NCBI RefSeq assembly: GCF_003334255.1
Contig: NZ_QOWU01000037.1
Reading direction: 5' to 3' (one strand)
DNA: 51,502 nt
Source of the DNA: Escherichia coli
GTDB taxonomy: Bacteria > Pseudomonadota > Gammaproteobacteria > Enterobacterales > Enterobacteriaceae
The notes beneath the pieces are model-generated. The model did no database searches. It was not told the DNA's origin and was given only the letters and a program-made list of their open reading frames with translations. Position numbers and translations under genes: made by a program. Below are positions 20,703 to 20,818 of this stretch, piece by piece. How positions within the stretch are numbered: position 1 is the first letter of the stretch; every line of letters begins with the position of its first letter.

Positions 20703-20818
20703 TCCTGGTTAAATTTCATTTTTCGCGGGTATAAAAAAACGATGGGGCGGGCAGTCCGGAAGACGTCAGGTCACAGAGATTTGACCCGCCCCTCCCCTCA
20801 GACAGTTGAGAATTATTA
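20703..20818. promoter_or_regulatory. Candidate cos region between HNH endonuclease and terS
   Basis: GC-rich inverted repeat gggcggg...cccgccc in HNH-terS intergenic gap, as in HK97-type cos phages. Confidence 0.35.

Follow-up and report, generated by a model that had tools for sequence, protein, structure and literature searches.

The 125-nt gap between the HNH endonuclease gene and terS is very probably the cos site of a temperate, SfV/SfI-like myovirus prophage, which sits at tRNA-Thr (thrW) beside proA in Escherichia coli. This assignment is based on comparison of the window, by which we mean the whole stretch of DNA that was analysed (51,502 nt), with phages whose DNA ends have been mapped. 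When joined, the ends of Shigella phages SfV, SfIV, SfI and SfII and of Salmonella phage ST64B are near-identical to the gap, which carries unchanged the cohesive end that was sequenced from SfI particles. Because an SfI-type cos has already been mapped experimentally, the site found here was already known, and as a characterised SfV/SfI-type cos site it is no discovery in itself.

The exact position of cos nevertheless matters in several ways. It defines the physical ends of the virion DNA of this prophage, and it tells annotators where the packaged genome starts, in a family in which several GenBank records are linearised at arbitrary nearby points. It also marks the minimal sequence that would enable packaging of plasmids or satellites by a very common prophage type of E. 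coli and Shigella. In addition, comparison across families yields a compact and testable map of cos sub-sites for phages with a P27-type terS, made up of a G-run block, an AC|YG nick border, a variable 10-mer, a T-tract and a TerS-type box.

The cohesive end and the packaging module

The five phages were found by a megablast search of the region against phage records, and their record ends all fall inside the gap. For each phage, we joined the right and left record ends and aligned the resulting junction to the window. From the G-rich block to the start of terS, the sequence is essentially identical across all five phages and the window: there is no difference between the window and SfV, a single one in SfI, at +1, and differences at a few bases in the others. 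The termini of SfI were sequenced from free-particle DNA, and comparison with the prophage revealed a 10-nt gap, 5'-TGCCCGCCCC-3', from which the authors concluded that SfI uses cos packaging; they reject a headful mechanism for SfI and note that SfV is postulated to use the same cos mechanism (PMC3636060). The same cos is stated for SfII and SfIV in the papers on these phages, and the cos given by the SfII authors (bp 59-125 of the SfII record) maps to 20760..20694 of the window.

In the window, the SfI cohesive end lies in its native flanks, between HNH and terS of an SfV-like module. The 10-mer is found at a single place in the window, and the 18-nt core GGACTGCCCGCCCCATCG likewise occurs once in 51.5 kb, compared to 0.04 occurrences expected by chance. 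A literature search with the bare strings TGCCCGCCCC and GCGGGCGAAG returned unrelated primer matches only.

The deposited ends of the other phages fall at different places. The SfV and SfIV records break at window position 20761|20760, which precedes the SfI right end by 17 nt and the 10-mer by 7 nt, whereas the SfII record begins directly after the HNH stop codon and the ST64B record begins 15 nt before terS. The SfI (PMC3636060) and SfIV papers describe their own records as linearised by convention. Since they differ from the cohesive end mapped for SfI, the record ends of SfV (U82619.2), SfIV (KC814930.1), SfII (KC736978.1) and ST64B (AY055382.1) are unreliable as physical termini in the SfV/SfI group.

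Table 1. Features of the cos region and the adjoining packaging genes (window coordinates; offsets are counted from the top-strand nick)
Feature	Position	Strand	Description
cos region	20694..20818	-	entire HNH-terS intergenic gap; 125 nt
Cohesive end (cosN equivalent)	20744..20753	-	5'-TGCCCGCCCC-3'; exact match to SfI virion-DNA end; predicted 10-nt 3' overhang
Conserved AC dinucleotide	20754..20755	-	directly upstream of cohesive end; invariant in alignment A1
T7 tract	20733..20739	-	+5..+11, downstream of top-strand nick; T-rich run kept in 73 distinct relatives
Candidate TerS box (cosB equivalent)	20709..20732	-	ATACCCGCGAAAAATGAAATTTAA; +12..+35
G-run block	20778..20799	-	GAGGGGAGGGGCGGG + TCAAATC; -35..-56; includes distal inverted-repeat arm 20785-20792
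HNH endonuclease gene	20819..21169	-	116 aa; N-terminal zinc ribbon + HNH motif
terS, small terminase subunit	20199..20693	-	164 aa; P27 family; Shine-Dalgarno AGGAG 20706-20702
terL, large terminase subunit	18469..20202	-	577 aa; packaging ATPase + nuclease; PHROG 9, E 6e-197
Portal gene	17034..18275	-	3' of ymfR-like ORF

On the minus strand, the genes run in the order HNH, the gap, terS, terL, a small ymfR-like ORF, portal, prohead protease and a capsid of the HK97 family. The order of HNH, terS, terL, portal, protease and capsid had been proposed in a sequence-only reading of this DNA, and it is confirmed by minus-strand gene calls, PHROG, RefSeq, NCBIfam and Pfam. The same reading placed the gap at 20703-20818. 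Its upper limit stands, but its lower limit came from an in-frame GTG upstream of the true start: in relatives and in RefSeq, terS starts at ATG 20693, preceded by the AGGAG listed in Table 1, and the gap is 20694-20818.

The HNH protein is the terminase-associated nuclease of this packaging module. It matches the PHROG 144 HNH endonucleases (E 4.5e-46), in agreement with the RefSeq annotation, and shares 36% identity with HK97 gp74 in a 69-aa alignment (E 5e-11). Its best match among solved structures is 5H0M, the GVE2 HNH nickase, which aligns over the full length including the N-terminal zinc ribbon (E 1.8e-12). The family of terS is supported by TIGR01558 (76.2 bits, cutoff 45.6), Pfam Terminase_4 (E 3.5e-21) and PHROG 83, and its product is 99-100% identical to that of SfIV and SfV. 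TerL and HK97 gp2 share 26% identity over 522 aa (E 1e-29), and the capsid protein scores 384 bits against TIGR01554. The ymfR-like ORF between terL and portal (18275-18457, minus strand) encodes a 60-aa membrane protein (PHROG 502, 'moron'), and this is an unusual place for a non-structural gene.

E. coli strain G1/2 carries the window in its chromosome at 100% identity. The element there looks like a complete lambdoid prophage: it has a contractile tail and the int, cI/cro, O/P, nin region, Q, lysis, head and tail modules. It is inserted at tRNA-Thr beside proA, the attachment site of SfI, SfV, SfII and SfIV.

Several further genes and elements lie around the packaging module. Between Rz and HNH is an iss gene (increased serum survival, a bor-like lipoprotein; 21695-21988, plus strand), which is a virulence-associated moron within ~900 nt of cos; in SfV no gene occupies this position, and Rz/Rz1 are followed directly by HNH. 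A full-length OmpC-like porin gene of 360 aa, an nmpC-type moron, lies between the Q antiterminator gene (quuD) and the holin gene (23779-24861, plus strand). A hairpin with a 13-bp stem and a 4-nt loop, terminator-like on the plus strand, lies at 21286-21315, within the 525 nt of non-coding DNA that separate the HNH start from iss; it is the only such hit of the terminator scan in 20400-21400. At the far end of the prophage (~1136-1690), a pinE-type invertase gene beside fragmented tail-fibre genes suggests an invertible host-range segment; just past it come a LEM-3-like GIY-YIG gene and a frameshifted transposase. The stretch from terL through terS, cos, HNH and iss to Rz is also found at 98.5% identity in E. 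coli CE-O153H30, on a separate record of 44,831 bp (NZ_CP172337.1, 17828-20809), which may represent a circular form of this SfV/SfI-like phage type, either extrachromosomal or excised.

Conserved layout and predicted cleavage

Using terS as a tblastn query, we collected relatives down to ~30% identity, and we compared the upstream DNA of Klebsiella, Burkholderia, Pseudomonas, Moraxella and Psychrobacter phages together with both HK97 ends. In the gap-free alignment of the window, these relatives and HK97 (A1), the 10-mer is preceded by an invariant AC in every case, and the right ends of SfI and HK97 stop at one and the same alignment column. The overhang 10-mer is in register with the HK97 right-end 10-mer CGCCGCCAAA and with the 10-mer of phiE125 and phi644-2. 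The cos ends of HK97 are 10-nt 3' overhangs, and phi644-2 and phiE125 carry a 10-base 3' single-stranded extension, 5'-CGCCCGCTTC-3' (PMC2920897). Three independent experimental systems (SfI, HK97 and phi644-2/phiE125) therefore concur on the position of the overhang, and two of them are explicit on its 3' polarity. The sequence-only reading had proposed an HK97-type cos between HNH and terS and had named comparison with cos sites of HK97-like phages as a way to check it. This comparison supports the proposal, as the 10-mer mapped in SfI is unchanged here and the 10-nt 3' overhangs of HK97 and phiE125/phi644-2 fall gap-free at the aligned column.

The 10-nt length of the end comes from SfI, and 3' polarity is explicit only for HK97 and phi644-2/phiE125. 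For the SfI/window lineage, we infer the same polarity by analogy with HK97 and phiE125 and from the fact that run-off sequencing of SfI left a 'gap' and not an overlap: the reads from both sides lack the 10 nt, as recessed 5' ends would give.

To look at conservation more widely, we scanned IMG/VR twice. A scan with a single terS protein returned only loci that are 99-100% identical, which report on micro-variation and not on deep conservation. Across 80 close loci the cos core is nearly invariant, which points to purifying selection; variation among relatives is seen in the ~35 nt that directly follow the HNH stop codon. With a diverse terS alignment as the seed, a second scan recovered 73 distinct upstream sequences that contain the anchor box, and positions were anchored on this box. 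The layout in these relatives is a G-run block, ~30 nt, AC|YG, a variable C-rich 10-mer, a T-tract and a CCCGCGAAA box at +15..+35. The G-run lies at about -52..-42 and is followed by gtcaAAagtc. The AC is found at fixed spacing in 61 of the 73, as ACCG in 58 (-12..-9), as ACTG in two, one of which is the window, and as ACGG in one. The strongest conserved block is CCCGCGAAAT..AAA.TT at +15..+35. A G-run followed by TC(A/G)AA is present at a like distance in the Klebsiella, Burkholderia, Pseudomonas, Moraxella and Psychrobacter relatives and in HK97. The G-run block may be a cosQ-like termination element or a nuclease-positioning element, and the T7 tract is likely a bendable spacer.

Some relatives depart from this layout. 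In four IMG/VR loci (L143, L146, L156 and L157), the 10-mer region is G-rich (GAACGAC GGGGGGAGCC), whereas it is C-rich in all others; the four keep the G-run block and the CCCGCGAAA box, and the strand composition of the overhang appears to be flipped. In Vibrio phage H2 PGK-2017 (L098, 535-901), the HNH gene, which is annotated as 'holin' with an HNH note, lies 6 nt from terS, so cos must be elsewhere in that phage.

The candidate TerS box is the most conserved stretch of the region, even though the TerS proteins of the relatives are only ~50-55% identical. In HK97, the minimal TerS binding site spans +15..+29 (CTAACCCGATTTTTT) and consists of a C:G step followed by an A-tract; we checked this numbering against the GenBank record, and it agrees. 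The box in the window, CCCG followed by an A/T run, parallels the HK97 site in form and position. On the strength of this conservation and HK97-like placement, ATACCCGCGAAAAATGAAATTTAA (20732..20709) is the best candidate for the TerS site. An important caveat is that the window TerS has no significant BLASTP similarity to HK97 gp1, that gp1 matches neither TIGR01558 (NCBIfam) nor Terminase_4 (Pfam), and that a profile of the window TerS found no HK97 TerS chain in the PDB. The analogy is thus one of DNA position and form only.

These elements can be assembled into a putative cleavage mechanism. During lytic growth, TerS would recognise the CCCGCGAAA/A-T box 15-35 bp downstream of the cut, and TerL and the adjacent HNH nuclease would make two staggered nicks. 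The nick in the coding (minus) strand is predicted between 20744 and 20743. The nick in the opposite strand would lie between 20753 and 20754, at CA|GT on the window plus strand, a placement that follows from the 10-nt gap of SfI and the 3'-overhang geometry of HK97 and phi644-2. Together, the two nicks would leave 10-nt 3' cohesive ends of sequence TGCCCGCCCC. Packaging would then run from the cut end towards terS, terL and the head genes and would stop at the next cos in the concatemer.

As for the nucleases, the literature already contains the proposal that the two nicks are shared between the HNH protein and TerL, one each. HK97 gp74 is reported to be required for, or to stimulate, cos cleavage by terminase. 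The predicted bottom-strand nick falls at CG|GT in HK97, phiE125 and most relatives, and at CA|GT in the window. Phage HNH nickases encoded next to terminase genes, including the enzyme of Geobacillus virus E2 (GVE2), nick CG|GT (AC^CG) and have ACTG as a star site (PMC3592412). This match to C(G/A)|GT, together with the GVE2 enzyme being the closest solved homologue of the HNH protein, suggests that the HNH protein may make the bottom-strand nick.

We tentatively extend this to a full assignment, which we consider possible but would not favour: HNH would nick the bottom strand at AC|YG, TerS would sit on the CCCGCGAAA box, TerL would nick the top strand 15 bp upstream of the box, and the G-run block would act as a cosQ-like termination signal. 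The HNH cut would then lie 10 bp upstream of the TerL cut, and this may represent a division of labour with fixed geometry across the P27-terS/HK97-like group. Counting against an HNH nick at this motif, HK97 gp74 and other cos-associated HNH proteins appear to be non-specific on their own in vitro. The match between HNH nick specificity and the conserved cos motif is perhaps absent from the existing literature.

The inverted repeat and alternative readings

The GC-rich inverted repeat that the sequence-only reading had pointed to in the gap does exist. It is a perfect 8-bp repeat, with GGGGCGGG at 20744-20751, CCCGCCCC at 20785-20792 and 33 nt between the arms. However, it does not flank the cleavage site, as that reading had suggested it could: the predicted nicks at 20744|20743 and 20753|20754 lie at the edge of the terS-proximal arm or no more than 2 nt beyond it, rather than between the two arms. 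Of the 10 overhang bases, 8 belong to the proximal arm, and the distal arm is part of the separately conserved G-run block.

The repeat does not exceed chance expectation. Perfect inverted repeats of at least 8 bp occur in 403 of 5000 dinucleotide-preserving shuffles of the gap (8%) and in 32 of 412 window tiles of the same size (7.8%). Among near-identical loci of the E. coli/Shigella type, 9 of 79 have arms that are complementary over only 4-6 bp; in one variant GGGGCGGG is replaced by GGGGGAGG while CCCGCCCC is unchanged, with no compensating change. We looked for compensatory, stem-maintaining changes in the relatives and saw none. Across 70 distinct sequences (the window and 69 relatives), the mean longest complementarity is 4.77 nt, versus 4.74 nt for mismatched pairs. 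Because the complementarity is unconserved and at chance level, we conclude that the repeat is incidental and results from the placement of a G-rich block ahead of a C-rich overhang. A functional symmetric element was rejected on the same grounds, the repeat being at chance level, broken without compensation in variants and unconserved in the family.

Two other readings give the repeat a function. Together with the T-run, it could be an intrinsic terminator, or another RNA hairpin, that ends the lysis/HNH transcription unit. The minus-strand succession of GGGGCGGG, 33 nt, CCCGCCCC, ATCG and TTTTTTT superficially resembles a stem with a U-tract, and the minimum-free-energy fold does pair both arms, but this fold is no more stable than those of shuffled sequences (-26.9 kcal/mol; the shuffles average -24.6 kcal/mol, z = -0.69, and 46 of 200 are as stable). 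The 33-nt loop is far beyond terminator geometry, for which we took a short GC-rich stem, a loop of 3-8 nt and a U-tract adjoining the stem, the terminator scan gave no hit in the gap, and no Rfam family matched at E <= 1. The uncompensated variants described above would break the stem, and the complementarity is not kept in the family. Moreover, late transcription in lambdoid phages must read through into the head genes, which lie downstream here. We therefore regard a terminator as highly improbable. We give just as little weight to the proposal that the repeat is a two-fold symmetric site for a dimeric terminase or HNH protein, with cos cleavage between the arms. Both arms do lie within conserved elements of the cos region, and the cosN of lambda has partial two-fold symmetry. 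Yet the SfI ends put the 10-nt overhang on the proximal arm itself, and the symmetry is missing from HK97 and from the Klebsiella, Burkholderia, Moraxella and Pseudomonas relatives, all of which have both elements. The break at 20761|20760 in the SfV and SfIV records does fall between the arms, but it is unsupported by SfI, whose ends are the only ones in the group to have been sequenced directly.

A different kind of alternative is that the site is a relic, in a prophage that is defective or that packages by a headful (pac) mechanism and no longer uses the sequence. Decay would fit with two features in or near the element, a frameshifted hypothetical gene and a disrupted transposase. On the other hand, terS, terL and the HNH, portal, protease and capsid genes are full length and 99-100% identical to those of viable phages, and the cos core, near-invariant across the 80 close loci, is identical to that of plaque-forming SfV/SfI-type phages, including SfI, for which headful packaging was rejected, and SfV, for which cos was postulated (PMC3636060). 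We consider a relic unlikely, and we retain the reading of the gap as an SfV/SfI-type cos site in which the repeat is incidental.

Comparison with known cos systems

The cos of lambda has three parts: cosQ upstream, cosN where the nicks are made, and cosB, which is bound by TerS and lies downstream beside the terminase genes. Packaging proceeds towards the terminase and head genes. Lambda has 12-nt 5' overhangs, needs no HNH protein and uses gpNu1 R-sites and IHF. The region described here would follow the same three-part logic and packaging direction, but it differs from lambda in overhang length and predicted polarity and in having an HNH gene, and its sequence is unrelated. Our cosQ-like and cosB-like labels are positional analogies only.

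The Burkholderia phages phiE125, phi1026b and phi644-2 are closer. Their P27-family TerS is ~50% identical to that of the window, their 10-base 3' extension CGCCCGCTTC follows GAC, and they have a CCCGCGAAATTAAAAATTCAGGAG box at equal spacing and a G-run block upstream. They differ in being siphoviruses with a host from a different phylum branch, in 5 of the 10 overhang bases, and in having no complementarity between the G-block and the overhang.

HK97 has a like gene order of HNH, cos, terS, terL, portal, protease and HK97-fold capsid. Its 10-nt overhang lies at the aligned position after AC, a G-run with ATCAAATCT lies ~35-50 nt upstream, and an element of CCCG plus an A/T-tract lies downstream. 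The window thus shares with HK97-type packaging an HNH gene that adjoins cos and the terminase genes, the accompanying portal, protease and capsid genes, and a TerL homologous to gp2 (26% identical; the HNH proteins are 36% identical), but TerS has no detectable homology to gp1 at the sequence level. The 10-mers also differ (CGCCGCCAAA in HK97 and TGCCCGCCCC in the window), the CCCG of the downstream box is 4 nt closer to the cut in the window than in HK97, and the distance from the HNH gene to the end is ~320 nt in HK97 versus ~65 nt in the window.

The closest systems are SfI, SfV, SfII, SfIV and ST64B. The prophage in the window differs from the SfV/SfI group in its host, E. coli G1/2, and in the iss/bor-like gene between Rz and HNH, and no gtr O-antigen modification genes are present in the annotated stretch. 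What it has in common with them is the 10-mer TGCCCGCCCC itself, the HNH and terS genes that flank it, and an attachment site at thrW beside proA.
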